From a virus, in IMG/VR virus record IMGVR_UViG_3300047323_000138, positions 23,352 through 87,351 of that record: a stretch of DNA of 64,000 nt. The stretch is one strand, 5' to 3'. The notes beneath the pieces were generated by a model. It was not told where the DNA came from and ran no database searches. It worked only from the letters and a program-made list of their open reading frames with translations. A program made the position numbers and the translations under genes. How positions within the stretch are numbered: position 1 is the stretch's first letter; every line of letters begins with the position of its first letter. Below, piece by piece: positions 5,418 through 63,329 of the stretch.

Positions 5418-5548
5418 ATTATTCTCCCTTCAGAGATGGTGGTTCTTATGAACCGACCTTATTGTTATTGTTACAAAGGGGAATATACACTGCAATTACA
5501 AAGCTATAATCACTCTATAATTGTATATAAAAGGTGTTGAAAGCCACG

Positions 5549-5691
5549 GCTGCCTGCTAATCAACTTGAGAGAACAAAGGTTTTTCTCTCCTCACCACAC
5601 TTGGTTGCATTACGAGGAACCACTCCGTCCAGTTCTTAAGCTGGCTAAGATTTGTGAGTCGCCAGACTCACGGGTTTCCGAACTAGGCAGC
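5549..5691 (-). ncRNA. Unclassified multi-stem structured RNA
   Basis: Closing stem GCUGCCU/AGGCAGC enclosing 3-4 hairpins, with two possible loop-tail pseudoknots; intergenic. Confidence 0.55.
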
Positions 5692-5704
5692 TCAGAAATT
5701 CTTT

Positions 5705-6109
5705 TTATTCGTCTTCATCAGGTTCAACGAACACCAACGACAAACGAGGTTTCATCTCGGACTTAATCTGTTCCGGGGTTTGTTCTTCCTCTTCAGGATC
5801 ACGCTTCCCTTCAGCACGGGCTTTGAAGTTTGTAATCTCATCGCTGCTAGCTGCTTTTTCAACGCTAACAATCGAGTTGATCACCCACTTTGCACTTGCA
5901 ACGGATTCAGAGTTAACAGTTTCGTTGTTAAGACTCTTATCAATCAAAGCTAGAGCAATATCTTCTCGTGTACGAAGCTTATCAGCCAACTCACGAAGTT
6001 TACTCTTTTTGATACGAACCTTACTATTTCCTTTCAAGTTTTGATTAGAGCGTTCCGCCCCGAATCGTGTACTTGGGCTAGGGTTTGGATTTGTAATCTT
6101 CTTGGTCAT
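5705..6109 (-). CDS. Putative terminase small subunit
   Basis: 134 aa upstream of terL; N-terminal TRF...N.KG..K pattern and helical core; assignment mainly by synteny. Confidence 0.55.
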   Translation of the reverse strand: MTKKITNPNPSPSTRFGAERSNQNLKGNSKVRIKKSKLRELADKLRTREDIALALIDKSLNNETVNSESVASAKWVINSIVSVEKAASSDEITNFKARAEGKRDPEEEEQTPEQIKSEMKPRLSLVFVEPDEDE

Positions 6110-6798
6110 ACTAGTTCCTTATACTTCTGATGGAATATTTTACGGGCTTGGATATCTTTAATACCAAGCTCTCTTTGAATTTGGATTATTTTATAACCTT
6201 TCTCAGCCAACTCACGTCCAAGTCTGTATCCTTTGCGAGTTAGAAATCCAAAGTGAGTTATCTTATCCAAATCTCTCCAATCAAAAGGTAGTACATCTGT
6301 ATGGACCGAGTAGTTGTCACCGTTAATTACTTTCTCAACAGCCCAGCGACCACAATCAAAGTATTTACTCAGTGCTTTCACATCTAGACGTTCTTCTCTA
6401 AATTCAGTTCGAATAAAGTAAACATCATCTTCCGTGAATAAAGCAGTTGCATTATTTTCACCTTGTTGACCAAACAACCACCTATCACGAGTGCCGTGCT
6501 TTACAGAATCAGCTTGATTCTCTTTGTGAGTGCCGGTTGCAAGATGCAGAGGGTTGTTGCACAGGCTGTTACCACACAAGTGGCGGACAACTAGTTCGTC
6601 TGGAACTTCACCTACGAACAACGTATAGAAAAGTCGATGTGTATGCCAATTTTTATTGTCGTGTTTTTGTTGACCATAACCATCACCTTGCTTGAAGATG
6701 CTTTTACGCCACAACCAACAGCCTTGATGATTCTCAATAACATTTTCCATCAAATGAATCTTTAATTCTTCAATACTTCTTGAGTTTGGACCGGCCAT
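6106..6798 (-). CDS. HNH homing endonuclease (HNH_3 type)
   Basis: GCWLW...THRLFY...VVRHLCGNSLCNNPLHLATGTHKEN. Confidence 0.9.
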   Translation of the reverse strand: MAGPNSRSIEELKIHLMENVIENHQGCWLWRKSIFKQGDGYGQQKHDNKNWHTHRLFYTLFVGEVPDELVVRHLCGNSLCNNPLHLATGTHKENQADSVKHGTRDRWLFGQQGENNATALFTEDDVYFIRTEFREERLDVKALSKYFDCGRWAVEKVINGDNYSVHTDVLPFDWRDLDKITHFGFLTRKGYRLGRELAEKGYKIIQIQRELGIKDIQARKIFHQKYKELV

Positions 6799-10765: not shown

Positions 10766-10952
10766 CGGTGGATTCCTTTTGTTAGTTCAGGTTAGGTTCC
10801 ATTATACTCACATGGATATGTGTTCTGTCAAGTAAATTGAAAAATAAATATTATTTCTTATCTACCTTACAGAATGTTGTATCCCCCAATACTGTTTCCC
10901 AAGCTAAAAACATAGCTTCTCTCCTAAAAGCACATCCTTGTGCATAAATAAA

Positions 10953-11618
10953 TTATCTGCCGCATGAACCTACAAGGCTACAATTCGGAAAGTTTGGACA
11001 GCCAGCATGTAGGTAGGAAAACGCATCAGAATACCTCTTGTCCAAAACTAATGCTTTATTGTTACCTATTGATGCTAGATGAATTGTTAATCCGCACTTA
11101 TGCAACCAATGAGATAAATTCTCATATGAATGCTCATCAATGTCTGGTGAAACTTTAGCCAATTGCTTATAGAATTCCTCATGACTTGCATCTTGGTCAA
11201 TCACTATACCTTTAATTTTTGAGATTATAGGTTGAGATGCCATGTTAGGGTTCAACAATTTATTATAAATACCATTATCTTTTTCCTCCCAAATCATATC
11301 TGTCTCAATTCCTTGAGCCTCAGATTGGGTGAGCTTCTCTACCACCTTCGTAACAACCAACTCCTTCCCTTCGTGGAAATCTTTATTCAATTGAGAACAA
11401 GAGCTTTTACCACTTACACAGTGGCGGGATCTGTTTCCTTTACCCATCCCAATATATCTGAGTACACCATCAACGTGGCAAACATACACGTAGTAAATAT
11501 TCTGATGCTCTGGCGAAACAGGTGTTTGCATTTTAACTCTTTCTTCTTCGGTTGTCTTGCGGTTAGGACGCTCAATAACTCGTTTGATTGGGTCCATAAA
11601 GTCTTTACTAATTTTCAT
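10953..11618 (-). CDS. GIY-YIG family endonuclease
   Basis: YYVY-X9-YIG..K..R...H motif and downstream conserved E (QGIETDMI). Confidence 0.7.
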   Translation of the reverse strand: MKISKDFMDPIKRVIERPNRKTTEEERVKMQTPVSPEHQNIYYVYVCHVDGVLRYIGMGKGNRSRHCVSGKSSCSQLNKDFHEGKELVVTKVVEKLTQSEAQGIETDMIWEEKDNGIYNKLLNPNMASQPIISKIKGIVIDQDASHEEFYKQLAKVSPDIDEHSYENLSHWLHKCGLTIHLASIGNNKALVLDKRYSDAFSYLHAGCPNFPNCSLVGSCGR

Positions 11619-11626
11619 GTTTCATC

Positions 11627-12109
11627 CTAAAAAGGTAGTTGTGAATCATCCCAATCATCAACGGGCTGGTGCTTGTATGGTTTTGGTGTTTGCGCGGGTT
11701 TAGGTACTACTTTCTCCACATACTTAGGCTTTTCTTCCTCAAGTATCTTGAAGGCTGCGACACTACCTTCCCACAAAACTAAATCAGAATGCACCTTGTA
11801 GTAAAACCACCGCCATTGACCAGAATCGGGCCTCAACTTCTGACCTTCCATAATTCCATGATCAAGAAAGGATCTTAGGATTGTTCCTGCGGATTTATAC
11901 TCTACACCACAACATTTAGCGATTGTTGCTTGTGCTTCATAATGTTGACCTTTCAAGGTTTCAGTAAAGAACTCATTCTTACTGAGCATATAGGCATAAA
12001 TAATCTTACCACTTGCTGAGAGCTTTACAGCTTCTCCTGTCTTCTTACTAATGTACCCATCTGCCAATGCTAGGCTTTTGGGTAGTTTATAGAATTCATC
12101 TGTGTTCAC
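11627..12109 (-). CDS. Winged-helix protein resembling RepA_N/replication-initiator N-domains
   Basis: FYKLPKSL, LSASGKIIYAYML, HTH QATIAKCCGVEYKSAGTILRSF; acidic DDWDDSQLPF tail. Confidence 0.55.
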   Translation of the reverse strand: MNTDEFYKLPKSLALADGYISKKTGEAVKLSASGKIIYAYMLSKNEFFTETLKGQHYEAQATIAKCCGVEYKSAGTILRSFLDHGIMEGQKLRPDSGQWRWFYYKVHSDLVLWEGSVAAFKILEEEKPKYVEKVVPKPAQTPKPYKHQPVDDWDDSQLPF

Positions 12110-12165
12110 ATTGTTGTACCTTTAGTTATATTATTGTAAATCTAGAGTTTTTATGTTGCTATTTT

Positions 12166-12291
12166 CTATTTTGTCATATCTTGAATCTCCTTTAGTTTGA
12201 ACATGCATTTCAGAATAAAAGATTGTCGACTCATCTCACCACGATTCTCATCAATCCAAGAAAGTAGTGGTCGAGGGATAATCAAGCTCAT
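12166..12291 (-). CDS. Ribbon-helix-helix (CopG-like) protein, 41 aa
   Basis: Not in track. MSLIIPRPLLSWIDENRGEMSRQSFILKCMFKLKEIQDMTK with strand-helix-GxSR-helix pattern; SD AGGAG. Confidence 0.6.
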   Translation of the reverse strand: MSLIIPRPLLSWIDENRGEMSRQSFILKCMFKLKEIQDMTK

Positions 12292-12321
12292 TTTGTATCT
12301 CCTACGTTATTTATCTCATAG

Positions 12322-12588
12322 GTATAGGACAAAAGATCCCATACTCGTTTCTTTCTCTATCACTTCGTTCTTGCACCAAACAATGAATAAAAGAACAAAA
12401 GCTTTGCACTCTTAAATCAAGATCTTGCTGAATACCACAATCTTACGCTCTACCGAGCTGTTTGTAAAGTATAGGATATTAAATCCTATTAGCTTTTAAA
12501 ATCTATATTTTCTTTCTATCTTAATCATTCTATATAAAGAGACATTTTATCCTATACATATAACCTTAAATGTCCCATACCTATAGGA
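12322..12588. repeat. Palindromic operator/iteron-like sites GTATRGGA-N7-TCCYATAC
   Basis: Full sites 12322-12344 and 12469-12491; half sites 12550-12557, 12573-12580, 12581-12588; AT-rich intergenic DNA. Confidence 0.7.
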
Positions 12589-12640
12589 TAAATTAAGTAG
12601 CTTTTTAATTCCTTTCATCTTTGTTTCTTCATTCCCATAA

Positions 12641-12766
12641 AGATTAGCACCCTTCCCATGTATCTGTCAACCCTCACACCAAAATAATCCCTATTCCAAA
12701 TCAACCTAACCAAATATAAATTCTTTTAGCAATCCGCTTGCTTTCCACAAATCTGTAGCGTAATAT
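12641..12766. promoter_or_regulatory. Divergent sigma70-like promoters
   Basis: Minus: TTGACA(12670-12665)-N18-TAATCT; plus: TTGCTT(12738)-N17-TAATAT. Confidence 0.55.
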
Positions 12767-12803
12767 AGGTTCATCAAATACAGAAACACACAGGAGAGAA
12801 GAA

Positions 12804-13085
12804 ATGAATGTGCATTTTGAAGTCTGGACAACTGAAATTACACTGAACAAAGAGATGACCTTCTATAATCATTTGTGGTGGGATATGAAATCCAATCGAT
12901 ACGGTATCACACATTTTATTGAAAAATACGATGACGTTTGTGAGCACACCGCTTCGTATGAATTCTTCAGGAATGGTGAGATGTTGTGTTCAGGTGAAGG
13001 TGATCCAATTCCTCAAGATAAAATTGGTACAGGTGGGGTTAGTGTTATGGTGCAGATTGATTATGCGGAGTACGTGTTCAAATGA
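12804..13085 (+). CDS. Hypothetical protein
   Basis: SD AGGAG; first gene after promoter. Confidence 0.7.
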   Translation: MNVHFEVWTTEITLNKEMTFYNHLWWDMKSNRYGITHFIEKYDDVCEHTASYEFFRNGEMLCSGEGDPIPQDKIGTGGVSVMVQIDYAEYVFK

Positions 13086-13540
13086 GATATACACGCGGTA
13101 AATGGGTCGCTAGCTACCGAGATACATTCTCCCTAGACATCACCCTATCCCCAATCATCTACGCCGGACTCTCACGTTTCCACGATGTCTTAGAACAAAA
13201 GAATCGCGAAGGGAGATGTCTAGGTATCCCAAACGAATATATGAAAGACGAATCCAAGTGGGTGACAGACTCTGACGTACAAAATTGGCTAGACGACATC
13301 AAGAAGATGATGTATGCTTTCGAGAACAAAGAGCCTGATATAAGTTTGTATGGGTTTAAGCTAGAGATGGTGCCAGTTCCGGGAGGTGTTGCTAAAGAAG
13401 GCTGCTCAGTTCCCTACACAATCGAGTGTGATAATCTGGAAGAGAAAGCTAGATATCGTGCTGATTGTGTTGAGCATGAGAGGTTGGTGCAAGAAGGGTT
13501 GAATCTACTAGCACTTCGCTGGAAGTCTCTTTGGTGGTAA
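13082..13540 (+). CDS. Hypothetical protein
   Basis: ATGA overlap with upstream gene; 152 aa. Confidence 0.7.
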   Translation: MRYTRGKWVASYRDTFSLDITLSPIIYAGLSRFHDVLEQKNREGRCLGIPNEYMKDESKWVTDSDVQNWLDDIKKMMYAFENKEPDISLYGFKLEMVPVPGGVAKEGCSVPYTIECDNLEEKARYRADCVEHERLVQEGLNLLALRWKSLWW

Positions 13541-13563
13541 ATTAATTTAATAGGAGAAAGGAA

Positions 13564-13728
13564 ATGAGTGATTATATTGAAGCTGGCTACGAAACACGCA
13601 AACACTATCTAGAATCTCTAGCTGATGAATATAATGTAGATATTGAGGTAGTGTTTGCACTAGCTTCTCTACTTGGACGGAATGAAGACTTTGATGGTTT
13701 GATTAGCGCTTTGGAGGATTCACAGTGA
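13564..13728 (+). CDS. Small acidic hypothetical protein (54 aa)
   Basis: Manual ORF MSDYIEAGYETRKHYLESLADEY...; SD AGGAG; GTGA overlap with MTase. Confidence 0.65.
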   Translation: MSDYIEAGYETRKHYLESLADEYNVDIEVVFALASLLGRNEDFDGLISALEDSQ

Positions 13729-14402
13729 TTGACTTGTATCATGGTGATTGCATTGAACAACTTATGAATGTTTCAGATAATTCGGTTAACCTTATTCTAA
13801 CTGACCCACCCTATAATATTGCACGAAAGAATAATTTTCATACAATGGGGCGAGCTGGGATTGACTTTGGTGACTGGGATAAAGGCTTTGATTTATTCTC
13901 GTATATTAAAGAAATTCCCCGTATCTTGCACAAAGACGGATCTGTGATTATATTTAATGACTGGAAAAATATTGGCGAGATTGCACGTTGCTGTGAAGAG
14001 AACGGTTTGGTGATTAAAGATATGTTGCGTTGGGAGAAACTTAACCCTATGCCTCGTAATAAAGATCGTCGTTATATTACAGATTATGAAGTTGCTGTTT
14101 GGTGTACTAATACCAAAGCTAAATGGACATTTAACCCTCAGGCTGATACATATGATCGTCCAAAGTTTGTTGGTAGCCTGACTCCGGGAAAAGAAAAGAC
14201 TGGACATACTACACAGAAGCCAGTATATCTTATGGAGCAACTATTGAAAATTCATAGTAATCCTGAAGATGTTGTATTGGATATGTTTATGGGTAGTGGT
14301 ACAACTGGTGTAGCTTGTAAGAATCTTAATCGTAAATTTATTGGTATTGAGCTGGACGAAGCTTATTTCAACATTGCAAAGAATCGTATTATGGAAGTAT
14401 AA
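13725..14402 (+). CDS. DNA N6-A/N4-C methyltransferase (beta class)
   Basis: DPPY, HTTQKP, DMFMGSGTTG motifs in beta order. Confidence 0.93.
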   Translation: MIDLYHGDCIEQLMNVSDNSVNLILTDPPYNIARKNNFHTMGRAGIDFGDWDKGFDLFSYIKEIPRILHKDGSVIIFNDWKNIGEIARCCEENGLVIKDMLRWEKLNPMPRNKDRRYITDYEVAVWCTNTKAKWTFNPQADTYDRPKFVGSLTPGKEKTGHTTQKPVYLMEQLLKIHSNPEDVVLDMFMGSGTTGVACKNLNRKFIGIELDEAYFNIAKNRIMEV

Positions 14403-29933: not shown

Positions 29934-32871
29934 TTATTTCACTTCAGGAATACAATTAATTTCCCAGGCCACCACTTCGCCAGCCATATGCTCTGCCTTG
30001 AAACTTGTCATGTACTGCCGATAGGCTTCCTCTACAGGCATAGACATAATGAATTTACGTTCTTCTTGCATACGTTCGATGCAGTCAGAGTGTGTTAGGG
30101 AAGAGGCTTTGCCTCCGTCAACAATGTACTCTTCACAAGTGATGACAGAGCAGAACGAGATAGCTAGTAGGAGGGACATGATTGTGATTCCTGTGTTTGT
30201 CTGAGAGAATCTCTTTCCTCTCTTCTTGTGTTCTATTGTACAGCTTCTGGTGTGGTGTGCAAGGGATCCTTTCATAAAGTTTAATTTATTTTTTAAACAA
30301 AAGAAAGCCCCATAATTGGGGCTGTCCGCTAGTTAACCTTTAGAAACTTCTTCGTGAAACCTCTCAGGTACTTTTGCAACCTTAACACCGTAAGCGTCTT
30401 CAAAGTGACTGGGAAGCTCTCCGTCTTCAAGATAGGCCCAAGATCTGCCTTTGTCATCGTCTCGCACTAAGACAATACGAGATGTCATACCCTCTTCACA
30501 AGGGATTTCATTAATAGCTTTGGCTTTAGCAAAGCTGTCTGTATGGTTGTGATTCTGGATGTCCTCATGCTCATCCACTTCCTCTACATCCCACTCATAG
30601 TATACAGTCATTTTGTGTCTCTCCTTTGGAAGCTGTTTTGCTTCCTTCTGGTTTTAATTCTAATGACCTTCACACCACACGTCAACAAGTATTTCAAACA
30701 TTATTCATTGAAAGATTCTATCAGGTAAGCTTGTCTCATCACTCCAAATAATCATAAATCACCGTAACATCTTCAGGCTTGTATTTAGCCATCACACCCT
30801 CTTCACTCAAACTCCCTTCCACAATGTCATAAGCCTGCACCTTCGCATTAAACACATATAGCTTCTTTGACTTCCTGTCGTATTTGTATAGGAGGATTGT
30901 GTCAGAGCTTGGATAGCTGTCGGATTTAAGCCAGATTGTATTGTCTTCGATGTATGTGCAAACTAGCTTTAGAGGGCCAAGTGTGTAGACAGCATCTGTT
31001 TTGAATTGGATAGTCATGATTGTTTATACTCATTAGAAAATCGTCTATTCCAACGCTCAACTAGTTCAAAAGCTTTATCTCTAGATTGAATGAATCGTAA
31101 AGGTTTGTCTACTTCATCTGTGTATTCCATAGCACTAATCTCTTTATCAGAGTAGCACAGGCTAATGGCGTAGCCTTTACGCACAGCATGACCTTCAATA
31201 AAGAGTTTCATACTTTGCACACCTCTTTTTCTTTAGACATCTTGACAAGGTTTGTTTCTTTGTGTTCATGAGAGTAAAGGTAAACTTCAATAAATTTAGC
31301 TGTCTCTTTACCAAAACCTTCAACTGTACTGAGCAAGCCGAAGTTAAACATCAGGACATCACCTTTCACAAGCTCTTTAACCTTAACTGTGTCCACTTGA
31401 CCTACGTTCTGGATGCTGATCATGATGTCTGTCCCTATGGTTTGCTTGGGTGTGGGGTAATTATAATCTACCCTCAAGCTCTCGTAAACACATATTTTCA
31501 ATTATTTACGGATAATCCACGTAAATAATCTTCCTAGATTTCTTCTTGTTTAGTTTGACAACAGACTCAGCTCTGTATTCAGCTTGCCTGATGATCCATT
31601 GATCAATGTGACGTTGTGCTTCTTTGATTGTGTCAAAATCAGCTAAGGTTTCAAGGTCTAGGTGCATGTCTTGCCACCACCAAAAGAAGCCACAATAATA
31701 CTGACACTGATAAGACACACTGTTGCAGTCTGTTGTAATCTTGATTCTTGTTTTGTTCATTATCATTCACCACTCCAATTCCGCTTCATATCCCTACTCA
31801 TCCTCCAACCTCGCTTAACACAGATATGCTTATTGTGTCGTTCGCTGTGTTCGTCTAAGGGTGTGTCTAGAGAGTGTTTGCTAGGACGTTTACGTTCGTA
31901 TTTTTGGAATGTTTCTGTTGTGTAGGTGTTCATTTGGTTTGTGTCCGTTTAAGGTTATGAAAAGATTCATTGTAACCAAACTCAATCAGACGTTTTTCTA
32001 ACTCTCCAATGTACTCTAGTAAGGAATCTTCAGAACGCTTCCACACATCAGGATTCCCGCCTACATCCCAAACTAATTCTGCCACCAGATTCATTGCATG
32101 TTCGCTAATCATTTGTAGCTACTCCAATACCACCCCATTCAGAATTCATATGGTGCAAGATCTTACCTTTTGCTGTCAAGATATAAAACTCTTCGGCGTC
32201 CCAATCGATGTTATCGGTTTTCCATTGCTTGCTGTAGCTTTCTTCGTGGCGGTACACTGCTACATACTCAGTCTCAAGCGTGTTATTCAAGCTTCTGCAT
32301 GCCCGATTGTCCTTCTTGAATACGCCGTTGTATTTAGTGCGAAACTCTAATACGCCTTGAGGTTCTTTCAAGAAATCTTCATAGCTAATCATTTCCTTCT
32401 CCTTAGCTCATTGTGTGGACAGCATTAACAATTACGTTCCAGACCTTCCCTTCACTGCGATATAATTTGAAGCTCTGGTGGCCTTGTGAGATTAGGTCTT
32501 CGATGGTTGATAGGGCTGCGTTGAGGGTATCATACTGAGTGTGTTGAGTGCTCATTGTTGGTTTCTCCATCCGGGACCATGTCCGATAGTATCATGTATT
32601 GAAATTGCCAACATTAAATAACAGATAGATAGAAGAACTACCATAACTCTTTACCTCCTCATGCATCCCTGTCATCCTCAGATGGTGCTTTCGGCATCTG
32701 CATCCAATGAGTGTAGAATTTAACCTGATCAAGACGTTGCAAGGATGTCCACTGAATAGCTGTCCAGATGTTATCACCGTAAGCTAGTACTTGTCCACGT
32801 TCGTCTGCATCAGCTTTGTACGGCTGAATGTCAGAGGTTTTGAAGTAGTACATTTGTTTGTGCTCGATCAT
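29934..32871 (-). other. Small early-type hypothetical CDSs
   Basis: 29934-30179, 30333-30611, 30739-31017, 31014-31220, 31208-31423, 31506-31766, 31930-32112, 32105-32392, 32659-32871. Confidence 0.6.
30306..30323 (-). terminator. Intrinsic terminator
   Basis: AGCCCCA-N4-TGGGGCT followed by UUCUUUUG on minus strand. Confidence 0.7.
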
Positions 32872-43024: not shown

Positions 43025-43382
43025 ACATAATCTCTCTATATCAAGAAAAAACTAGCTAATAAAATGTCCTCTAGGCCACGTCCCATAAGGGCTGTAGCCA
43101 TATTCGATGGAATTTAAATTTGAAAGTCAAGCACTGTTCTCTCAAATTCATAAGTGAATTGTCTCATATCTCAGACTACAGGTGCAAGTCAAATTATCTT
43201 TTGTTTGGGGTATTTAGAGAGAATTTATCTTATTTAATCCTCACCCTCCAACACCCTCAACATCTCTTCAAGATCCTCCCTACTCAGCCACAGTGGAGGC
43301 ACCATTTCATGGTAATCTTGCTGTTGGTGATAGATGATAATTGCATTACCTACTTTGTCCCAATCTGTACCGTTGACTGTGT

Positions 43383-43914
43383 TCATTTCCAAACTCCTGC
43401 CGTCTCTTCATGGAATTTCTCAGCATATCCATTGTAGTCTGTCCAACCAGAAACAACCACTTGGTAGTCAACATTCTTAGCATCGTAACTGATCAGAGCA
43501 AACTTGTCTGTCTTAGGGTTAATGATGAAATAATAATCACGGCCTCGTACGGTTTGATAATTCCAATCATTCGCTGTAATGTGCCCAGTTCTATCACACC
43601 AATCTTTAAATTCTTTCTTGTTCACGCTTTCCCCTCCCCAAGCTTAAGTTTCTCTCCAGAAGAGGTGTCAATAATTTTAAATTTGTTTTTCATTTCAAGC
43701 CTCACACATTCCAGTCAAGGAATATTTTAATTTGATCTAGCTTGGAAATCTCATCAATCTTCTTGTAGATGTACTCTACAAACAACACCCTACCACGACC
43801 ATCTGACGGAAGGTCTACAAGATCCCCAACTGAAGGAATAATGTCAGACCTAACCCAATGATTCCAATTCTCAGAAACCATGTCTGTGTATTCAATATAG
43901 TATAAATCTTTCAT
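43383..43914 (-). other. Two small hypothetical CDSs
   Basis: 43383-43625 (SD GAGGGG) and 43702-43914 (SD GAGGAG). Confidence 0.6.
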
Positions 43915-46216: not shown

Positions 46217-47956
46217 GTGGCTGAATACGTTGTAGGTAAGAATCCTTGCCCCAAATGTAGGCGCCAAGGAAATGACCGGGCAGGTAATAACTTCCATTTC
46301 TACGGGGAGGGTCTTGGAGGTTATTGCTTTGTTTGTGAGTGGACCCTTCCAAGTGATGCTTGGCTGGAAGAGAATGGTGAAATTAAAGATGAAGAAGAGG
46401 AGTTTGTAGTGGGAAGTTATTTCGATCTAGAAGTTAATGAGAAAATTAAGAAACAAACGGGGACAGACAGTAAAGGTTATCGGGGAATTCGTAGCGATAT
46501 CTCCCGACCTTTTGGTGTTCGTTACTCTTACGACGAGGCAGATGGTAGTGTGGCAGCAACCTACTACCCGGCTACTCAGAACTATGAGATTTCAGGGTAT
46601 AAGGTTAGACATCACCCCAAGCGATTCGAGGCAATTGGTGAAACTGGGAAGGGCTGTGAGTTGTTTATGCAACATGCGTTTAAGAACACCACTGAACAGC
46701 GTGTAGTTATCGCTGCTGGTGAAATTGACGCCCTCAGTTGTTTCCAAATGCTGGCTGACTATCAGAAAACAAAAGGTTATGAACCAATTCCAGTTGTAAG
46801 TTCAACCATTGGTGAGGCTGGCACAGCAAAGCAGATTCAAGCTCAATATGAGTGGTTTTCTCGGTTCACCAAAATCATCATTTGCGCAGATCAAGATGAG
46901 GCAGGTAAGAAAGCTGTAGATAAAATTGCAAAAGTTCTGCCCAAGGGTAAAGTTTTTGTAATGAATCTGTCAATGAAAGATGCAAATGAGCTTTTGATGG
47001 CAGGCCGTGAGAAACAATTTGTTAATTCGTTTTTTACAGCTAACTCCTACACACCGGACGGTATTGTGGGCAGTGGTGAACTGATGGATCGGATTAAGGA
47101 AGCTGCGCTGGTTCCTCGTATTCCGTTGCCACCTTTTATGCATCGTCTCCAAACTCTGATGGCCGGGGGGATTCCACTTGGAACCATCCTAACTATGGGG
47201 TCAATGAGTGGTGCAGGTAAGTCAACTATCTCAGAGGAAATGGTTTACTATTGGGTTTTCAATAGTCCTCATAAAATTGGGATCGTGAGTCTGGAAAGTG
47301 ATTGTGCCCAATACGGTACAAAAATTCTCTCTCGGCATATTAGTAAGAAGATTGACCTTATTGATGATTCTCAGTTAAAGGTTAACTTCCTTAGCTCTGA
47401 AGAAGTTGAAGAAAAAGCAAATGAACTATTCCGAAACAATGACGGTTCACACCGTTTCCACTTGATTGATGAACGGGACGGCGGGCTTGATAGTCTTAAA
47501 AATCAGATCATGGAATTGATTGTTGCATGTGATTGTCGTGTGTTGATTCTTGACCCACTGACTGATGTTCTTGATGGAATGAGTAATGATGAGCAGTCAG
47601 TATTTATGAAGTGGCTGAAGGGAATGGTGAAGAGTCACCAAGTTACTTTTATTCTGATTAGTCATGTCAGAAAAAGCTCTTCGGGAGCAAAAGCAAACTC
47701 AACAGGGGCAGATTTGCATGAAGAGGATTTTATGGGGTCTTCTTCGATTTTTAAGAGTAGTGCATGTAATTTGCTGTTTACCCGAAACAAAGAACATGAG
47801 GATGATGTACTCAGGAATGTAACTACAATGAAAATGACTAAATGTCGATGGACTGGGCGAACTGCACCGATTGCCGGACAGTTCTTTTATTCAAATGAAA
47901 CACACACACTTTCTGATTATGAAGATTGGTTGTTGGAAAATCCACAGGAGTTTTAA
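46217..47956 (+). CDS. T7 gp4-like DNA primase-helicase
   Basis: CPKC...CFVC Zn finger, TOPRIM GEIDALS and DQDEAG, Walker A GSMSGAGKS, SLE, LDPL, ISHVRK, KCR. Confidence 0.95.
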   Translation: MAEYVVGKNPCPKCRRQGNDRAGNNFHFYGEGLGGYCFVCEWTLPSDAWLEENGEIKDEEEEFVVGSYFDLEVNEKIKKQTGTDSKGYRGIRSDISRPFGVRYSYDEADGSVAATYYPATQNYEISGYKVRHHPKRFEAIGETGKGCELFMQHAFKNTTEQRVVIAAGEIDALSCFQMLADYQKTKGYEPIPVVSSTIGEAGTAKQIQAQYEWFSRFTKIIICADQDEAGKKAVDKIAKVLPKGKVFVMNLSMKDANELLMAGREKQFVNSFFTANSYTPDGIVGSGELMDRIKEAALVPRIPLPPFMHRLQTLMAGGIPLGTILTMGSMSGAGKSTISEEMVYYWVFNSPHKIGIVSLESDCAQYGTKILSRHISKKIDLIDDSQLKVNFLSSEEVEEKANELFRNNDGSHRFHLIDERDGGLDSLKNQIMELIVACDCRVLILDPLTDVLDGMSNDEQSVFMKWLKGMVKSHQVTFILISHVRKSSSGAKANSTGADLHEEDFMGSSSIFKSSACNLLFTRNKEHEDDVLRNVTTMKMTKCRWTGRTAPIAGQFFYSNETHTLSDYEDWLLENPQEF

Positions 47957-48532
47957 ATGCAAGAAGAAGTTTGGAAAGATTACCCGCCGTATCCAGATCG
48001 ATATCAAGTGAGTAACTTTGGAAATGTGAGAAACAAACCTTTTATGAAGCAGTCTTCGAACAAGGGAGGCCCATATAGTTTCTTAACTAAACAAAAACAG
48101 TTGATTCCGCTATTAAACGAAGACGGTTATTGGCAACTTCGCTTGATGGTTGATGGCTTTAAATTTACAAGAAAGATACATAGGATGGTGGCAGAGACTT
48201 TTATTGAAAATCCTGAGAATTTACCTTGTGTAAATCATAAGAATTCCAATAGAGGTGACAACTCCCTAGAAAACTTGGAATGGTGTACAGAACAATACAA
48301 TGTGAAGCACAGCTATGACACGGGAAGTAATTCAAATGCTGGTGAAAAACATCCTAAAGCTTTGCTGAACAATGAAATTGTTTTAAGTATTAAAGAGCTT
48401 GAAATTGAGGGTTTGACCTGTAAAGAGATTTCTGATAAGCTTGATTTCAAATATCATACCGTCCACAAAGTATTGCATAGGAAGAATTGGAAAAATGTTG
48501 AACCAGAAGGCAGCAAGTGGGTTTTTCTATGA
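47957..48532 (+). CDS. NUMOD4-HNH homing endonuclease
   Basis: EEVWK...YQVSNFGNVR; HRMVAETF...VNHKNSNRGDNSLENLEW. Confidence 0.92.
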   Translation: MQEEVWKDYPPYPDRYQVSNFGNVRNKPFMKQSSNKGGPYSFLTKQKQLIPLLNEDGYWQLRLMVDGFKFTRKIHRMVAETFIENPENLPCVNHKNSNRGDNSLENLEWCTEQYNVKHSYDTGSNSNAGEKHPKALLNNEIVLSIKELEIEGLTCKEISDKLDFKYHTVHKVLHRKNWKNVEPEGSKWVFL

Positions 48533-51113: not shown

Positions 51114-51212
51114 AAGAATTTGTGAGAAATCACAGATAGCCATAAAGGCAAAAGCGACAACAAATGTTTGGGGAACGATCCCCGTCAATAGAAATAAATG
51201 AGGATTCACAAG

Positions 51213-51821
51213 ATGGCTTTGATTGAAAACGTTGTATATCTGTACGCTAAAGTTCAGAACCCAGTTCCAGCATTCAACAAGATTGATAGTGAGTGGTCTG
51301 TAGATGTTGTGGCTTCTAAGGCTGATGCCAAGAAGATCAAGAAAGAGTTTCCTAAGACTTCGTTGAAGGAATTTGATAACGCTGACTTCACTGAGAAGTT
51401 TGGTATTGAACCACCATTCCCAAAACAAGATGAACAGTTTATCCTGAAATTTAAGAAGTCTCACATCAAGAACGGTAAAGAAACTCCTGAGAAATATCGT
51501 CCACGAGTTATCCAACAACTGGAAGATGGTTCTCGTGAAGACATCACCTTTGATAAATTGGTTGGTAATGGTAGTAAGGGTACTCTGAGCTATCGCATTA
51601 AAGAGACTGACTCTTATGGTAACTTTGCAGAACTTCAAGCAATTCTGGTAACTGATTTGGTTGAATATCAGTCTAAAGCTGGCGGTGTTACTGATGACTT
51701 CGGGCCTGTAAAGCTAAAGGATGCTCCCGTACAAGAACGAGTAGCACCGAAACAAGGTCCAGTACCAGTTGTGCAGGAAGAGGTTGAAGAAGAGGATATG
51801 TCCTCGGAATTACCGTTCTGA
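51213..51821 (+). CDS. Putative ssDNA-binding protein (gp2.5-like)
   Basis: YAKV..P, VGNGSKG, QAILVTDLVEY; acidic tail ending ELPF. Confidence 0.7.
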   Translation: MALIENVVYLYAKVQNPVPAFNKIDSEWSVDVVASKADAKKIKKEFPKTSLKEFDNADFTEKFGIEPPFPKQDEQFILKFKKSHIKNGKETPEKYRPRVIQQLEDGSREDITFDKLVGNGSKGTLSYRIKETDSYGNFAELQAILVTDLVEYQSKAGGVTDDFGPVKLKDAPVQERVAPKQGPVPVVQEEVEEEDMSSELPF

Positions 51822-51842: not shown

Positions 51843-52511
51843 ATGGCCATTTCTCAAGAGAGTGTAGTTATGCGTGATATTATAAAGATTCTTAATGTTC
51901 CTGATTTCCAAGATGATAATGGTTTGTGGTGTAGAGAAAAGACTACAACAGAGGGTGATGTATATGTCCGGAGAGTTACACGCTCAGGATTACTTTGGGG
52001 TAATGTGACTTCAAGATGTAAACAACCTTACTGGAACCAATATCCAACTTACTCAGGAACACAGAACAACTTTGATGACTATCAAGATTTTACTGAGTGG
52101 TGTCAAAGTCAGTTTGGATACATGAATAAGGATAGGAGTGGGAGATATTGGGCGTTAGATAAGGATCTAATTGACCCGAATGCAAAGTCCTACTCAAAAG
52201 AGAGTTGTATTTTCGCCCCTAATTGGATTAATACGATTTTGATTTCTTGTAATTCTGTCAGGGGTGAATACCCGATAGGTGTAAACCTTCACAAAACAAC
52301 CGGTAAATTCATTGGTAAGTGTGAACAGTATCTGGGTTTATTTGATACTCCGATGGAAGCACACAGAACTTGGCAAGAAAAGAAGTTAGATATTTTGCAA
52401 GATGCTGTTAGGCATTCAGATATTGAGAATCATGACGCTCTCGTAAAGGCAATTTATAATCAAGCTGTAAAACTACGTTATCAGTTCGATAACAATTTAG
52501 AAACTATCTAG
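51843..52511 (+). CDS. HNH-type homing endonuclease
   Basis: WALDKDLI...YSKESCIFAP; YLGLFDTPMEAHRTW; paralog of 16647 and 58509. Confidence 0.75.
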   Translation: MAISQESVVMRDIIKILNVPDFQDDNGLWCREKTTTEGDVYVRRVTRSGLLWGNVTSRCKQPYWNQYPTYSGTQNNFDDYQDFTEWCQSQFGYMNKDRSGRYWALDKDLIDPNAKSYSKESCIFAPNWINTILISCNSVRGEYPIGVNLHKTTGKFIGKCEQYLGLFDTPMEAHRTWQEKKLDILQDAVRHSDIENHDALVKAIYNQAVKLRYQFDNNLETI

Positions 52512-54632: not shown

Positions 54633-54944
54633 ATGACCGATATTTATAAGCTGTTTGAAAAAGAAACTTGGACACCTGATGATTGCACACCATATATTTG
54701 GTACAGAGCGTGTGTTGATGAGTTGTCCTTTAACAAAGATGATGATGTCAATAATCTAATGAATGGTGATGGTCTTACTTACTCTTATAATGTAAGCAGC
54801 GAAGTCGAACGTGATGGCTTTGTAATCTACACCCTACAGAATGATTATGGTGGCGAATCGTTTCAAGCTATCTTTGATATTTCTAAGAAAGTTGATGAGG
54901 ACAAGTACTGGGAAGAAGTTGATAGTGAAGATGAAGAAGAATGA
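54633..54944 (+). CDS. Acidic hypothetical protein, paralog family copy 3
   Basis: NLMNGDGLTYS...ERDGFVIYTL...QAIF. Confidence 0.75.
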   Translation: MTDIYKLFEKETWTPDDCTPYIWYRACVDELSFNKDDDVNNLMNGDGLTYSYNVSSEVERDGFVIYTLQNDYGGESFQAIFDISKKVDEDKYWEEVDSEDEEE

Positions 54945-55471
54945 AAGAACCTTGGCTAAACTACCCTCACATCTGGCCGACTAAAAGTTCTTTTCTTAGT
55001 TTTCTGCGTGGTGGTATCAGACGTGCTTTATGGAACCGCTCACCGATTAAATTAGAATTCATTAAGAAGTACAGACGTAGGATTAAGAATCCAAACCCCA
55101 GAGGTAAGGTGAAAGAAGTTTGGGGTGGTACTTGCAATCTGTGCGGAGATGAATTTCCAAGCAATCAGTTGAATGTTGACCATCGGGAAGGACAGAACAG
55201 TCTCAAGGAGCTTTCTGATTTACAATCTTTTATGGAAAGTATTGTACTTGTGCAGGAAAGTGATCTACAATTCGTTTGTCTGCCTTGCCATAAGATTAAG
55301 AATTTACAGGAAAGAACAGGAGTAGATTTCGAGACAGCAAGAATTGAGAAAGCTGTAATTGAAATATGTAAAAATAAGCAAGATAAACAGTGGTTACTTG
55401 ACAGAGGCATCGCACCACTTGGTAATGCTAAGTTGAGACGCCAACAAATAACTGAGGAGATGATGAAATGA
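54941..55471 (+). CDS. HNH endonuclease (core replication/recombination type)
   Basis: CNLC...VDH...LQFVCLPCH. Confidence 0.8.
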   Translation: MKEPWLNYPHIWPTKSSFLSFLRGGIRRALWNRSPIKLEFIKKYRRRIKNPNPRGKVKEVWGGTCNLCGDEFPSNQLNVDHREGQNSLKELSDLQSFMESIVLVQESDLQFVCLPCHKIKNLQERTGVDFETARIEKAVIEICKNKQDKQWLLDRGIAPLGNAKLRRQQITEEMMK

Positions 55472-58458: not shown

Positions 58459-58521
58459 GTGTCAAAGAAAGAATGTATTAAGTTTGGTTATGCAATCGGT
58501 AATCAACAATGGCAAGATTAA
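58459..58521 (+). pseudogene. 20-aa remnant duplicating the N-terminus of the MazG-like gene
   Basis: MSKKECIKFGYAIGNQQWQD* vs MSKKECIKFGYAIGNMP at 59195; SD AAGGAG. Confidence 0.88.
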
Positions 58522-59183
58522 AGACAAAATCACAAAGGGGTCTATCAGACTTCAAAGATGCTAATGGCTTGTGGGTTCGAAGTTATACGCTGAGAACAGA
58601 CGAAGATACCCAGACTCAGTACCACACAAGGGCTGGTGTTTTATTTTCTCACATCAAAGATCGTTGTAGATCCGACAGTTACTATGTAAAGAACAAACCG
58701 GCATACAAAGATTGTGAAAATGATTTTAAAGACTTTCAAAGTTTTACTGACTGGTGCCAAGATCAGTATGGGTACATGAATAGAGAGGATAAGCTCAATC
58801 AATATTGGTCAATTGATAAAGATATTCTAGTGCCCGGCAACAAAGTCTACAGTGAAAGCACTTGTATTTTTGTGCCGTCTTATATAAACTCTGTATTTGC
58901 ATACAGTCAGGCAACAAGAGGCGAGTACCCAATTGGTGTAGACTTTAAATCTAGGGAAGGTAAATTCAGAAGTTCCTGTAGAGACAATGATGGGAAACAG
59001 AGGCACCTTGGGTATTTTACAGAGCCCTTTGAAGCACACCGAGCATGGCAGCTATTTAAAGTGGGAGTTATTAGGAAATGGTCAGAAGACATTGACCTAG
59101 GAGTAAAACTACAAACTGCTTTAGTGGATAGAGCTGAAATCATTGAAAAAGATCACGCCAATAAAATCATTACGTTATACTGA
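58509..59183 (+). CDS. HNH-type homing endonuclease
   Basis: WSIDKDILVPGNKVYSESTCIFVP; HLGYFTEPFEAHRAW. Confidence 0.8.
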   Translation: MARLKTKSQRGLSDFKDANGLWVRSYTLRTDEDTQTQYHTRAGVLFSHIKDRCRSDSYYVKNKPAYKDCENDFKDFQSFTDWCQDQYGYMNREDKLNQYWSIDKDILVPGNKVYSESTCIFVPSYINSVFAYSQATRGEYPIGVDFKSREGKFRSSCRDNDGKQRHLGYFTEPFEAHRAWQLFKVGVIRKWSEDIDLGVKLQTALVDRAEIIEKDHANKIITLY

Positions 59184-59845: not shown

Positions 59846-60505
59846 TTGTTTGATTTTATCAAATGTAAAGTTATTGGTGTAACACAACCTGTAGTAGACT
59901 TCATTCCAGACAGTGAAGGTATCATTTCATACGCAGCACGAGTCAGCGCACCACAGAATCAAAGTAATTTCGACACAGCAGCAAAGCTTCTCAAGTATTG
60001 TGTAGACCATCAACATTATTCAGTGTTTGAGACTTGTAACATTACAATGGAAATTGAAGCACCACGGGACATTGCAAGGCAGATTCTTCGTCACCGTAGT
60101 TTCAGTTTTCAAGAGTTTAGCCAACGTTATGCAGAATCTACAGACTTCATTACTCGTGAATGTCGTTTGCAAGATGAAAAGAATCGTCAGAACAGTATTA
60201 GTACAGAAGATTGGATGCTGATAGACTATTGGGAAATTGCACAGCAAGAAGTGTTAGAGCTTGTAAAGTTTCATTATGAAAAAGCTTTGATGTTGGGTAT
60301 TGCTAAAGAAGTTTCTCGTTGTCTCTTGCCAGAAGGTCTTGCAATGAGTAAGATGTACATGAATGGCACAGTGAGGAGTTGGTTGCATTACATTCAACTT
60401 CGTGAAGAGAACGGTACACAGCTTGAACATACTGATGTAGCTAAGAAGGCTAAAATAGAAGTATTGAAGTATTTTCCATTCCTTGAGAATGTATTGGAGA
60501 AATAA
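59846..60505 (+). CDS. thyX: Flavin-dependent thymidylate synthase
   Basis: HYSVFE, RQILRHRSFSFQEFSQRY, KEVSRCLLP. Confidence 0.95.
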   Translation: MFDFIKCKVIGVTQPVVDFIPDSEGIISYAARVSAPQNQSNFDTAAKLLKYCVDHQHYSVFETCNITMEIEAPRDIARQILRHRSFSFQEFSQRYAESTDFITRECRLQDEKNRQNSISTEDWMLIDYWEIAQQEVLELVKFHYEKALMLGIAKEVSRCLLPEGLAMSKMYMNGTVRSWLHYIQLREENGTQLEHTDVAKKAKIEVLKYFPFLENVLEK

Positions 60506-60506
60506 A

Positions 60507-61069
60507 ATGAGTTTCCAGAACGTAGAAGATTCACCAATTGAATATTACATCCTTGAAGCTGCTGCACTGATTGCCGTTAGAGAAGGTATTCAGAAGCGTG
60601 AAGCTCATATAAAGATTCTTGAGACACTGAGTGAATGGATTAGTTATTACGAGGCCGCGCTGCCAGTAAAGAGTGCTTATAATAAATTTCGGAGTAGTAC
60701 TGTATGAGTGTAGGATTTAATCTTTCTTTGTCAGATTTGCTTTTGGTTCAAGGGTTTGCCCAAGCATTTGGTGAAGATAATAAACCAGCAATTAATAAGT
60801 TTCTTTTTGATAACGGTCTAGATGTTTCGATGGGGGTAGATGAAGTAGTTTGCAAGCATCGTAATCTTCGTGGGAATGTTGTAGACTGTTTGATGTATCA
60901 AGGGCATGAACGTAGTTGCAAAGAGTGGTTGTCTGGTGGCTCAGCCAGTTGGGATAATGTTGTGGACAACTGTAGTTTGGATCTTCGGATTGATCTTAAG
61001 ACAATAGGCGCTCAGTCTAATAACACAGGTATGATCCTTGATCAACTAGAACGACATGCAAGTAAATAA
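60507..61069 (+). other. Two hypothetical CDSs
   Basis: 60507-60707 and 60704-61069 with SD GGAG. Confidence 0.65.
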
Positions 61070-61109
61070 GCTTAAAGAATTAATTAGAAATTATTAAATA
61101 AGGAGTTGT

Positions 61110-63329
61110 ATGAATACCGCTGGCAAAGATATGATGTCGTCCTCTAAATTTTACATGGGCTATTCTCGTTGGGATGAAGCTAAGGCTGGATACGAAACTT
61201 GGGAAGAATCTGTTGAACGTGTAATGAATATGCACCGACAGAAATATGCTACTGTAATGACACCAGAACTTGAAGAGTATATTTCTTTCGCAGAACAAGC
61301 TTATAAAGATAAGGCTGTGTTGGGGGCACAACGAGCACTTCAGTTTGGTGGAGAACAACTGTTTAAACATGAAGCTCGTATGTACAACTGCTCTGTTAGT
61401 CATTGTGACCGAGCAACATTCTTTCAAGAGTGCATGTACCTTCTGTTGTGCGGATGTGGGGTTGGGTTCTCTGTTCAATCACATCACATTGCAAAGCTTC
61501 CAAAAGTACACAAACGTTATGAAAAGAAAGTAAAAGTATTCCAAGTTCCAGATACAATTGAAGGTTGGGCTGATGCTTTCGGTGTACTGTTCAGTAGTTA
61601 CTTTGTAGATGGTGGTAGCTTCCCTGAATACAAAGGTTGTCAAGTACACTTTGACTTCAACAAGATTCGTCCTAAAGGATCTTTGATTAGTGGTGGTTTT
61701 AAAGCTCCCGGTCCAGATGGTTTGCGTAGTGCGTTGGTCAAGTGTGAAGCGTTGCTAGAAGCATTAGTTGAGGGGAAAACAGAAGCTGTTAGCGTTCCTA
61801 CCATCACAGCTTATGACTTTGTTATGCACATGTCTGACGCAGTTTTGAGTGGTGGTGTTCGTCGGTCTGCAACTATCTGCATGTTTGACAAAGACGATGA
61901 GTTGATGTTGAAAGCGAAGACTGGTGATTGGTTTGTTGATAACCCACAACGTGGTCGAAGCAATAACTCTGTAATGCTTGTTCGTCACGAACTGAGTCGT
62001 GAGGAGTGGGCTAATATTATGAAGTCTGTTAAGGACTTTGGTGAACCCGGTTTTATCTTCACGGAGAATAAAGAGTTCTGTTTTAATCCTTGCGTAGAAA
62101 TTGGGATGTTGCCAGTTGCAGAGAATGGTGAATCAGGCTTTCAATTCTGTAATCTTACGGAGATTAATGGTGGTCAGTGCGTAGATAAAGAATCGTTCTT
62201 CCGGGCTTGTAAAGCTGGTGCAATTCTTGGTACTCTCCAAGCTGGCTACTCTAACTTTAAATATCTTTCTGATGCTACACGGCGTATTACAGAGAAAGAA
62301 GCTTTGCTTGGTGTGAGCATTACGGGTTGGATGAATAATCCAGATGTACTGTTTGATCCACAAAACATGATTGATGGTGCAACTGTAGTTAAAGATATTA
62401 ACTCTGTTGTTTCTATTCTTCTTGGTATCAATCAGGCAGCACGAACTACAGCAGTAAAACCAAGTGGCAATGCTTCTGTTGTATTGGGTACAGCTTCAGG
62501 TATTCACGGGGAACACAGTCCTAAATACTTGCGTAATGTTCAGATGAATGTGGGAGATGAAGTTACTCGTATCATCACTAAGACTAACCCTAAAATGGTT
62601 GAACCTAGCGTATGGAGTAGTAATGGCACAGACGTTGTAGTTAGCTTCCCAGTTGAGAGTAAAGAAGGTAGTATTTACAAATCTGATTTGATGGGCGTGA
62701 AACAGCTTGACTATGTTAAAACTGCTCAGGAATATTGGATTGAACATGGTACTAACTACGAACTGTGCGTTGACCCTGATCTTCGTCACAACGTAAGTAA
62801 TACTATTACAGTTGATGATTGGGACGAAGTAGAGGAGTATATCTACAATAACCGTAAATGGTTTGCTGGTATCTCCCTTCTGAGTTCGATGGGTGATCGT
62901 GCATATGCTCAAGCACCATTCACTGAAGTATTCACCGCACAACAGATTGTTGATATGTATGGTGACTCTTCCATGTTTGCATCTGGCCTGATTGTTGGAG
63001 CATTGCAAGCATTTGGTAATAACCTGTGGATGGCGTGTGATACGGCACTTGGGTTTGGGTTGAAACTTGACCCAGAAGATTCCAGTGATTTGCTCAAACG
63101 TGATTGGGTACGTCGAGTTAAGAAGTTTGCAGAACGCAACTTTGATGGGGATGTTATGAAGCTTACTTTTATGTTGAAGGATTGTCATAACCTTCACAAA
63201 TGGGTTGGTATTAATAGTAACTTCGTTGATGTGGACTTCTCGACTGATCTTTCTCAACAAAGTTACACAGAAGTAGACACAATGGGTGCTGTAGCCTGTA
63301 GTGGGGGGATTTGTGAAATCAGCTTTTGA
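61110..63329 (+). CDS. nrdJ: Class II (adenosylcobalamin-dependent, RTPR-like) ribonucleotide reductase
   Basis: YNCS, GCGVGFS, SGGVRRSA, NPCVEI, CNLTE, VKPSG, C-terminal CSGGIC; no nrdB seen nearby. Confidence 0.8.
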   Translation: MNTAGKDMMSSSKFYMGYSRWDEAKAGYETWEESVERVMNMHRQKYATVMTPELEEYISFAEQAYKDKAVLGAQRALQFGGEQLFKHEARMYNCSVSHCDRATFFQECMYLLLCGCGVGFSVQSHHIAKLPKVHKRYEKKVKVFQVPDTIEGWADAFGVLFSSYFVDGGSFPEYKGCQVHFDFNKIRPKGSLISGGFKAPGPDGLRSALVKCEALLEALVEGKTEAVSVPTITAYDFVMHMSDAVLSGGVRRSATICMFDKDDELMLKAKTGDWFVDNPQRGRSNNSVMLVRHELSREEWANIMKSVKDFGEPGFIFTENKEFCFNPCVEIGMLPVAENGESGFQFCNLTEINGGQCVDKESFFRACKAGAILGTLQAGYSNFKYLSDATRRITEKEALLGVSITGWMNNPDVLFDPQNMIDGATVVKDINSVVSILLGINQAARTTAVKPSGNASVVLGTASGIHGEHSPKYLRNVQMNVGDEVTRIITKTNPKMVEPSVWSSNGTDVVVSFPVESKEGSIYKSDLMGVKQLDYVKTAQEYWIEHGTNYELCVDPDLRHNVSNTITVDDWDEVEEYIYNNRKWFAGISLLSSMGDRAYAQAPFTEVFTAQQIVDMYGDSSMFASGLIVGALQAFGNNLWMACDTALGFGLKLDPEDSSDLLKRDWVRRVKKFAERNFDGDVMKLTFMLKDCHNLHKWVGINSNFVDVDFSTDLSQQSYTEVDTMGAVACSGGICEISF

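Follow-up and report, generated by a model that had tools for sequence, protein, structure and literature searches.

A conserved phage module of palindromes, a ribbon-helix-helix gene and a RepA-type winged-helix gene with an SSB-like tip, a candidate replication origin

Introduction

The closest characterised relative of the locus described here is RepA of the Vibrio cholerae satellite PLE, a tested replication initiator whose N-terminal domain is the solved structure 4RO3 (Barth et al., NAR 2020, PMC7145576). PLE RepA binds semi-palindromic iterons of ~30 bp that are centred on a poly-A tract (PMC7145576), and it fires only together with the replisome of the phage ICP1 (PMC7145576, PMC8263062). 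RepA-type domains are also re-used by ICP1 and by coliphages in anti-satellite nucleases (PMC8263062, PMC10448857). Here we analyse a module of related parts in an uncultured soil phage, using a 64,000-nucleotide stretch of DNA (the window) that spans bases 23352-87351 of the 87,351-bp IMG/VR record IMGVR_UViG_3300047323_000138, which carries direct terminal repeats. The module combines an array of palindromes, a gene for a 41-aa ribbon-helix-helix (RHH) protein and a gene for a 160-aa winged-helix protein, which ends in a tip resembling that of the single-strand-binding (SSB) protein. It is real, conserved and inherited rather than a captured plasmid cassette, and we lean slightly towards reading it as a replication origin with a minimal RepA-type initiator and an RHH autorepressor.

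The window protein and PLE RepA share a homologous origin-binding winged-helix domain, A-tract-centred semi-palindromes in the non-coding region beside the gene, and a setting with a T7-like phage replisome. PLE RepA, however, is satellite-borne and continues into a large C-terminal domain whose fold is unknown, whereas the window protein is phage-encoded, carries only a linker and the SSB-like tip within its 160 aa, and has an RHH gene ahead of it. The RepA_N initiators of Firmicutes plasmids (RepA of pSK41 and pTZ2162; 4PT7, 4PQL, 5KBJ) are similar in the fold of the whole domain and in having iterons built as inverted repeats that converge on an A tract; the window protein lacks their host-specific C-terminal domain, and its iterons lie outside the gene. 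Operons of the pMV158 copG-rep type have the same order of origin repeats, promoter, small RHH gene and initiator gene, and their copG product, at ~45 aa, is a bare DNA-binding fold, as is the 41-aa protein here. Their RepB, in contrast, is a rolling-circle HUH nuclease, whereas the window winged-helix protein has no nuclease domain, and the window RHH protein gave no sequence-level match to CopG families (Pfam, PDB profile).

An acidic run, a terminal [ILV]PF-COOH and a disordered linker are shared with the SSB tip (E. coli ..DFDDDIPF) and with the Phe-terminated tails of T7 gp2.5 and gp4, but in the window phage the tip sits on a sequence-specific duplex-DNA-binding domain and not on an OB fold. 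The acidic tail of T7 gp2.5 contacts T7 polymerase (PMC12339929), and the C-terminal tip of SSB is a hub for many partners (PMC11253446). ICP1 Odn and the RepA_N-T5orf172 nucleases likewise place a RepA-type domain in a lytic phage, and in some of the genomes analysed here a GIY-YIG-like gene adjoins. Odn is a single fused protein aimed at a satellite origin; in the window phage, by contrast, the genes are separate, what fills the nuclease slot differs between genomes and the target sites belong to the phage itself.

Outside T7 and T4, little is known of how origins are selected in large lytic phages with T7-like replisomes, and the module is a concrete origin and initiator candidate for widespread soil and Pseudomonas myoviruses, including phiPMW. 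Its kind is already known, because databases label the protein family by homology. New here are the short form ending in an SSB-type tip, the RHH partner and a defined site architecture in lytic phages; to our knowledge, an SSB-type tip on a site-specific DNA binder has not been described for an initiator.

Results

The winged-helix protein is homologous to the origin-binding domain of PLE RepA

An earlier note, made from the letters of the window alone, had picked out a promoter, repeated palindromes, an RHH-like open reading frame (ORF), a winged-helix protein with an SSB-like acidic LPF tail and a following GIY-YIG gene, and had compared the whole with a plasmid copG-rep layout. All of these except the nuclease gene, to which we return below, proved to be present as described. 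The coding parts are as follows.

12166-12291, minus strand: ORF of the 41-aa RHH protein, with its ribosome-binding site AGGAG at 12299-12303
11627-12109, minus strand: ORF of the 160-aa winged-helix protein, with a GTG start
11741-12109, minus strand: DUF6945 / RepA-NTD-like winged-helix domain, residues 1-123
11627-11740, minus strand: variable Pro/Lys-rich linker (pLDDT 47-58), acidic tip and stop codon
11630-11659, minus strand: acidic tip, DDWDDSQLPF

The winged-helix protein shares ancestry with the N-terminal, origin-binding domain of PLE RepA. A profile built from 25 of its homologues matched 4RO3 in the PDB (E 2.6e-8, residues 3-87), and the FYKLPK and LS..GKIIYAYML motifs of the window protein, the second noted earlier as LS..GKIIY, are common to 4RO3. 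In line with this, 4RO3, the sole solved relative within DUF6945, was the top structural match of the AlphaFold2 model (domain pLDDT 80-91) by both aligners (Z 10.1, root-mean-square deviation (rmsd) 3.5, 107 residues; Foldseek 4.2e-5). The plasmid RepA_N initiators 4PT7_B (Z 8.2, 108 aligned) and 4PQL_B (Z 8.1, 110 aligned) followed, with Foldseek values of 5e-3 to 2e-2, and these two are the only structures besides 4RO3 that cover the whole domain. The model thus has the RepA_N DNA-binding-domain fold, and semi-palindromic iterons converging on an A tract, in the style described for this group (PMC7145576), occur in the window phage and its relatives; the genus-specific C-terminal domain of RepA_N proteins is absent, with only ~37 residues following the domain. 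Most homologues at 64-91% identity carry a precomputed match to DUF6945 (PF22182), and distant members score 28.5-50 bits. The protein also matches phrog_8102 (9e-10), and both this PHROG and the RefSeq record of phiPMW gp115 are named 'replication initiation protein'. A search for longer, fused forms of 337-2000 aa found none, which is weak evidence.

The 41-aa protein has a ribbon-helix-helix fold

The short ORF upstream is conserved in 9 loci and 45 protein clusters, far more strongly than the winged-helix protein, and its residues P6, W12, D14, R17, G18, S21 and R22 are invariant among 26 sequences. Its AlphaFold2 model (pLDDT 93.5) has an extended segment at residues 1-6 and helices at 7-16 and 22-40, and the top 50 VIA structural neighbours are nearly all RHH proteins (Z 5.7-3.6, rmsd 1.2-2.5, 38-41 residues), among them NikR, PutA52, ParD2, AmrZ, Arc, ORF56, omega and ParG. 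The structural comparison that the earlier note had proposed therefore returned matches for both proteins, to RHH folds here and to RepA_N folds above. At the level of sequence, the RHH protein matches phrog_31326 (1.9e-8). No RHH family was reached by 26 RHH members in Pfam at E up to 10, no RHH chain by the PDB profile search and no match in NCBIfam by the 41-aa protein, and Foldseek with the 41-residue model gave nothing below E 2. The protein is probably the autorepressor of the operon. A toxin-antitoxin pair was considered and ruled out: the RHH protein has no toxin-binding extension, and its partner is a DNA-binding domain.

The control region holds a promoter, a palindrome array and an AT-rich block

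Genes are read leftward from 12291 and rightward from 12804, so that the module lies in a divergent intergenic gap. Within these 512 bp (12292-12803) are a sigma-70-type promoter, a palindrome array and a very AT-rich stretch, with the following features.

12738-12766, plus strand: candidate rightward promoter for the operon from 12804 (TTGCTT, 17-nt spacer, TAATAT), read from the sequence
12641-12670, minus strand: P1, sigma-70-type promoter (TTGACA 12670-12665, 18-nt spacer, TAATCT 12646-12641)
12571-12600, minus strand: distal 30-bp repeat arm, including an inside-out pair of TATRGGA half-sites; a conserved block in a seven-locus alignment
12558-12580, minus strand: site S1, with the GTATGGGA left half and, in the window genome, a weak right half
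12535-12557, minus strand: site S2 (GTATAGGA-TAAAATG-TCTC..), left half common with the palindrome, A-tract centre
12469-12491, plus strand: site S3 (GTATAGGA-TATTAAA-TCCTATTA), palindrome with 2 mismatches, abutting the P2 -35
12322-12344, plus strand: site S4, perfect GTATRGGA-N7-TCCYATAC palindrome, ~20 nt upstream of the RHH ribosome-binding site
12312-12320 and 12582-12590: additional half-sites
12460-12550, no strand assigned: AT-rich block, 78-82% AT, candidate DNA-unwinding element
12440-12468, minus strand: P2, second promoter-like site (TTTACA, 17-nt spacer, TAAGAT)
12403-12409 and 12370-12376, minus strand: two GTGCAA(G/A) boxes, candidate RHH operator, within the conserved TTGGTGCAAGAACGAAG block 12370-12409

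P1 points at the repeats and at the RHH and winged-helix genes. Its TTGACA is invariant in the seven aligned relatives and recurs in most other lineages examined, with TTGACT in phiPMW, and P1 is of the same class as phage promoter-like sites at 28242, 44029 and 57383. P2 has better matches in three related loci (L003, L007, L008) and is not kept in three others (L006, L009, L010). The candidate rightward promoter, which scored below the promoter-scan threshold, would stand back-to-back with P1.

The palindromes announced in the earlier note, GTATRGGA-N7-TCCYATAC, form an array of four to five semi-palindromic sites with a GGA-N7-TCC core and an A/T-rich centre: one is perfect, one has two mismatches and two more have the left half, and the equivalent of S1 in the relative L006 is a full palindrome. 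All five exact matches to TATRGGAYA in the 64-kb window fall within 12323-12590, and GTATRGGA occurs ten times in the window against 3.1 expected, five of them in the module gap. Because all exact matches lie in this one gap, the winged-helix protein would have a single target locus, beside its own gene. In the seven-locus alignment the half-sites are invariant and the 7-nt spacers variable, a signature of protein-binding sites. The region is bracketed by an inverted repeat of 30 nt (I1; 12571-12600 against 12302-12331, 83% complementary), to which the additional half-sites give rise and whose proximal arm, 12302-12331, overlaps S4.

Within the AT-rich block, the AT fraction of 50-nt windows climbs to 0.82 (99.9th percentile of the genome; genome mean 0.59), and the sense strand is purine-rich with GATAGA-type repeats. 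Purine-rich repeats of the GATAGA/GAGAAC type follow the palindromes in every lineage, including those without the RHH gene (12490-12540 in the window; also in L012, L018 and L020). Candidate roles for this purine block are a stable RNA-DNA hybrid, a site for a host factor or an unwinding element.

The P1 leader (12292-12640, minus strand) folds unusually well (z -4.1) owing to the 30-bp arms, and in a P1 transcript the distal arm (CTACTT..) would base-pair with the proximal one, which holds the RHH Shine-Dalgarno sequence (..AAGTAGGAG). Long and short P1 transcripts might then differ in RHH translation, the fold being one without covariation support. As L010 does not retain the extended arms, we take the leader fold as a by-product of the duplicated sites.

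Most lineages with an RHH gene have GTGCAAG boxes at about positions -85 and -115 relative to its ATG, the three RHH-less ones have none, and the 17-mer of the TTGGTGCAAGAACGAAG block is found once in the window. By this correlation alone, the RHH protein may bind the boxes; the pairing is weaker than that of the winged-helix protein with the palindromes, because the 7-mer is short. A GGTGCAAG box, which may be there by chance, is also present at 43181-43188, in a second divergent intergenic region (43025-43410) that has neither an RHH nor a winged-helix gene.

The module is inherited at a fixed position in the early operon

Among the genes of the window phage are those for a T7-type primase-helicase, a family A polymerase whose exonuclease is a separate subunit, and a gp2.5-like SSB, together with those for thymidylate synthase and ribonucleotide reductase. 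Its large terminase is ~43% identical to those of ~95-kb Pseudomonas myoviruses, and the cultured Pseudomonas phage phiPMW has the same gene order. The module occupies the same early-operon position in ~10 related phages of 84-103 kb, phiPMW included, which argues that it was inherited and not captured. It keeps this place at protein identities of 91% down to 32%, and the early genes on either side are common to these phages too. The winged-helix protein has 71 homologue clusters of similar length, many of them on 84-91-kb contigs. We compared 18 viral loci around its gene, and found the order of TTGACA promoter, 2-5 repeats, purine-rich AT block and genes kept throughout; the RHH ORF is missing only from the three lineages furthest from the window phage (L016, phiPMW L018 and L020). 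A tblastn search with the winged-helix protein gave phiPMW only among phages and nothing among 72,556 plasmids, a pattern scan of 185,579 bacterial and archaeal species genomes gave no relative, and the DNA of 10900-12900 had no match among cultured phages.

Across these lineages the type of repeat changes together with the putative recognition helix of the winged-helix protein, and repeats persist in the three RHH-less lineages. A YK..G.ILR helix pairs with TATRGGA repeats, and a.RR... helix with TACGCA-N5-TGCGTA repeats, in a group that includes the RHH-less L016; phiPMW, also without the RHH gene, has GGACAAAATGTCC three times upstream of gp115, at ~41.85-41.93 kb of NC_041880, with the same GGA-N7-TCC core as the window sites. 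From this co-variation we infer that it is the winged-helix protein that binds the palindromes.

One 90-kb relative (IMGVR_UViG_3300014732_000001, here G002) has three paralogous winged-helix genes, all ending ..DDEEGLPF, in modules at 5502-6213 (minus strand), 30878-31354 (plus) and 60280-61295 (plus). At least two of the three are each equipped with a promoter, palindromes, a purine block and an RHH-like ORF, and the third module is complete, with a TTGACA promoter, TAGGAAC-type palindromes, a purine block, a GTGCAAG box and a 40-aa RHH-like ORF.

An SSB-type tip is conserved at the end of a variable linker

After residue ~125 the winged-helix protein is modelled with low confidence and varies among homologues, but the end, [DE][DE]x.LPF, is kept (..DDSQLPF in the window), with F160 conserved at >=90% despite the variation of the linker. 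Among full-length representative clusters, 55 of 134 (41%) end in PF, 52 of these 55 with acidic residues before it, whereas 15 of 1187 background phage ORFs end in PF. The protein has the sequence marks of the SSB C-terminal tip: acidic residues, [ILV]PF at the free C-terminus and a disordered linker. The SSB of the phage itself has a similar end.

51198-51821, plus strand: gp2.5-like SSB, ending ..EEEDMSSELPF (phrog_112, 2e-9, residues 10-202)

The SSB-like proteins of relatives end in ..DIPF, ..EIPF, ..PLPF or ..LLPF. Comparable ends occur elsewhere: the primase-helicase (46217-47956) ends ..ENPQEF, and in another relative, G008, a 717-aa protein (65183-67336) ends ..DDDVPF. Phe-terminated acidic tails seem, by their sequences, to be common to several replisome proteins of this phage group. 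Tails of DUF6945 proteins fall into at least three classes, acidic-xPF-COOH, [DE][DE]FLx[GS][IV]x[FW] and [LIM]PEWx[KR], which are short linear motifs on otherwise homologous proteins. A reading of QLPF as a clamp-binding motif was ruled out, since the acidic run and PF-COOH are conserved and the Q and L are not.

Discussion

Of the readings that the earlier note had offered, a phage origin with its initiator is the best supported, by the homology to PLE RepA, the iteron-style sites and the AT-rich flank; that the origin fires is what we infer from them. The winged-helix gene and its control region probably mark the origin of the phage. In such a scheme, host RNA polymerase would read early from P1 into the site array that brackets the AT-richest 90 bp of the region, and an RHH dimer would probably silence the operon, with the GTGCAAG boxes as its possible target. 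The RepA-NTD-type (DUF6945) winged-helix domain of the minimal initiator would bind the palindromes, and its flexible linker would present the SSB-like acidic ..LPF-COOH tip. This tip could recruit the partners of SSB tails, namely the phage T7-like polymerase or primase-helicase or the partners of host SSB, and loading would take place at the adjoining AT-rich element, where the purine-rich transcript from P1 might assist.

More tentatively, and with rather less than even weight, we suggest that the initiator impersonates SSB, the duplex-bound RepA-type domain tethering an SSB tip at the origin. Phage polymerase, primase-helicase, or host PriA, primase and the chi subunit of the clamp loader would then be concentrated on an AT-rich element opened by transcription, and interchangeable tails (PF-COOH, DEFLxGIxF, LPEW) could re-wire the same origin binder to different replisomes. 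The recruitment principle would be a site-specific DNA binder with an SSB-type tip; if it is true, tail swapping could explain how such modules move between replisomes. The module also suggests a possible source of the PLE RepA-type replicons and of the RepA-domain anti-satellite nucleases of the Odn kind.

Several observations weigh against an origin and its initiator. The window protein falls just short of the Pfam cut-off for DUF6945 (27.6 bits against 28) and well short of that for RepA_N (PF06970; 11.9 bits against 30, E 0.22), its identity to PLE RepA is only ~21%, and PLE RepA alone provides the functional evidence in the family. Generic winged-helix regulators reach the same Z of 8-9, over shorter spans of 61-88 residues. 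GC skew tracks gene orientation and transcription and gives no origin signal, and the three modules of G002 could be regulators as well as multiple origins. A strict co-variation of winged-helix and SSB tails was ruled out, as distant relatives keep IPF on the SSB and have other tails on the winged-helix protein. The sites also lie among promoters, and the first repeat of phiPMW overlaps the -10, a placement that plain autoregulation would explain.

The main rival, which we regard as fairly unlikely, is a purely transcriptional switch: the RHH and winged-helix proteins would be early regulators acting on operators at divergent promoters, the tail would contact RNA polymerase or a regulator, and there would be no origin. 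Autoregulated operons that open with an RHH gene, such as P22 arc-ant, are a classic arrangement. The sites do lie between and downstream of sigma-70-type promoters, S3 abutting the P2 -35 and S4 the RHH ribosome-binding site, the overlap with the -10 in phiPMW would be natural, the winged-helix fold resembles those of MarR, CRP and Fur regulators (Z 8-9), and one source names a homologue 'predicted transcriptional regulator'. The only characterised relative, however, is an initiator, no other promoter in the 64 kb has such sites, and a repressor needs neither a conserved PF-COOH tip on a disordered linker nor an extreme AT-rich block. Iteron initiators commonly autoregulate, and the overlap with promoters therefore does not decide between origin and switch. 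The resemblance to plasmids, in the copG-rep-iteron layout and the RepA_N-type domain, would be accounted for by a plasmid-style replicon that maintains a circular form at low copy by theta replication, as an episome or in a carrier state, with a dif-like XerCD site, leaving the T7-like replisome to lytic growth. We hold this to be improbable: the ORFs examined include no integrase, partition or lysogeny genes, the genome has direct terminal repeats, plasmids and bacterial genomes yielded no relatives, and the dif-like site is 16 kb from the module in an 87-kb genome and not opposite to it.

The likeness to copG-rep operons stands as a fair analogy, and both folds were confirmed. The captured plasmid replicon or mobile cassette of the earlier note, taken as a recent acquisition, is the least credible of the readings and is largely refuted: the layout and the adjoining homing-endonuclease-like gene would fit, but even phages with only 32% identity have the module in the same place and order and share the early genes around it, the composition is unremarkable, and the plasmid and species-genome searches gave no matches. 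Very improbable, too, is an anti-satellite or exclusion factor, in which a nuclease-less RepA-like domain, as a relative of ICP1 Odn, would compete for or decoy the origin of a satellite or co-infecting phage. Phages do carry RepA_N-type domains for such a purpose (Odn, Gp5 and coliphage homologues), and a GIY-YIG-like gene lies directly downstream in some genomes. The cognate sites, however, are in the phage's own genome, where they adjoin the gene and change with it from lineage to lineage, the neighbouring nuclease gene is a separate and variable one, and the winged-helix gene is core and not accessory. Finally, a terminase or pac site was ruled out, as terL lies elsewhere and the direct terminal repeats, at the ends of the record, are ~35 kb away.

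A variable gene slot downstream and other observations

The gene that follows the module, which the earlier note had called GIY-YIG, is the one part of its description that stood only in part.

10953-11618, minus strand: 221-aa GIY-YIG-like ORF, in a variable slot

The motif YYVYV..RYIGMGKG..R..H is present, and the nearest ESM Atlas cluster is LEM-3 GIY-YIG (0.89, a lead only); searches of Pfam, PHROGs, NCBIfam and the PDB by profile gave no family match. The ORF is probably a homing endonuclease. A GIY-YIG-like gene fills the slot in four genomes, and unrelated genes do so in L003, L006, L009, L010 and L012 (unrelated slot ORFs are 121-255 aa long, L003-L015). Because the slot gene differs between genomes, we regard the GIY-YIG-like gene as a separate insert outside the module. 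Apparent turnover of homing endonucleases beside the core winged-helix gene makes the slot a plausible birthplace of Odn-type fusions between a RepA domain and a nuclease.

An Rfam scan of 11000-14000 returned only a snoR28 match below threshold (13297-13369; 31 bits, gathering score 45); it falls within a coding region, and we take it as chance. Scattered between the phage's replication genes are four genes for HNH endonucleases, at 47957-48532, 51843-52511, 54941-55471 and 58509-59183 (PHROG matches of 1e-39 to 1e-64).

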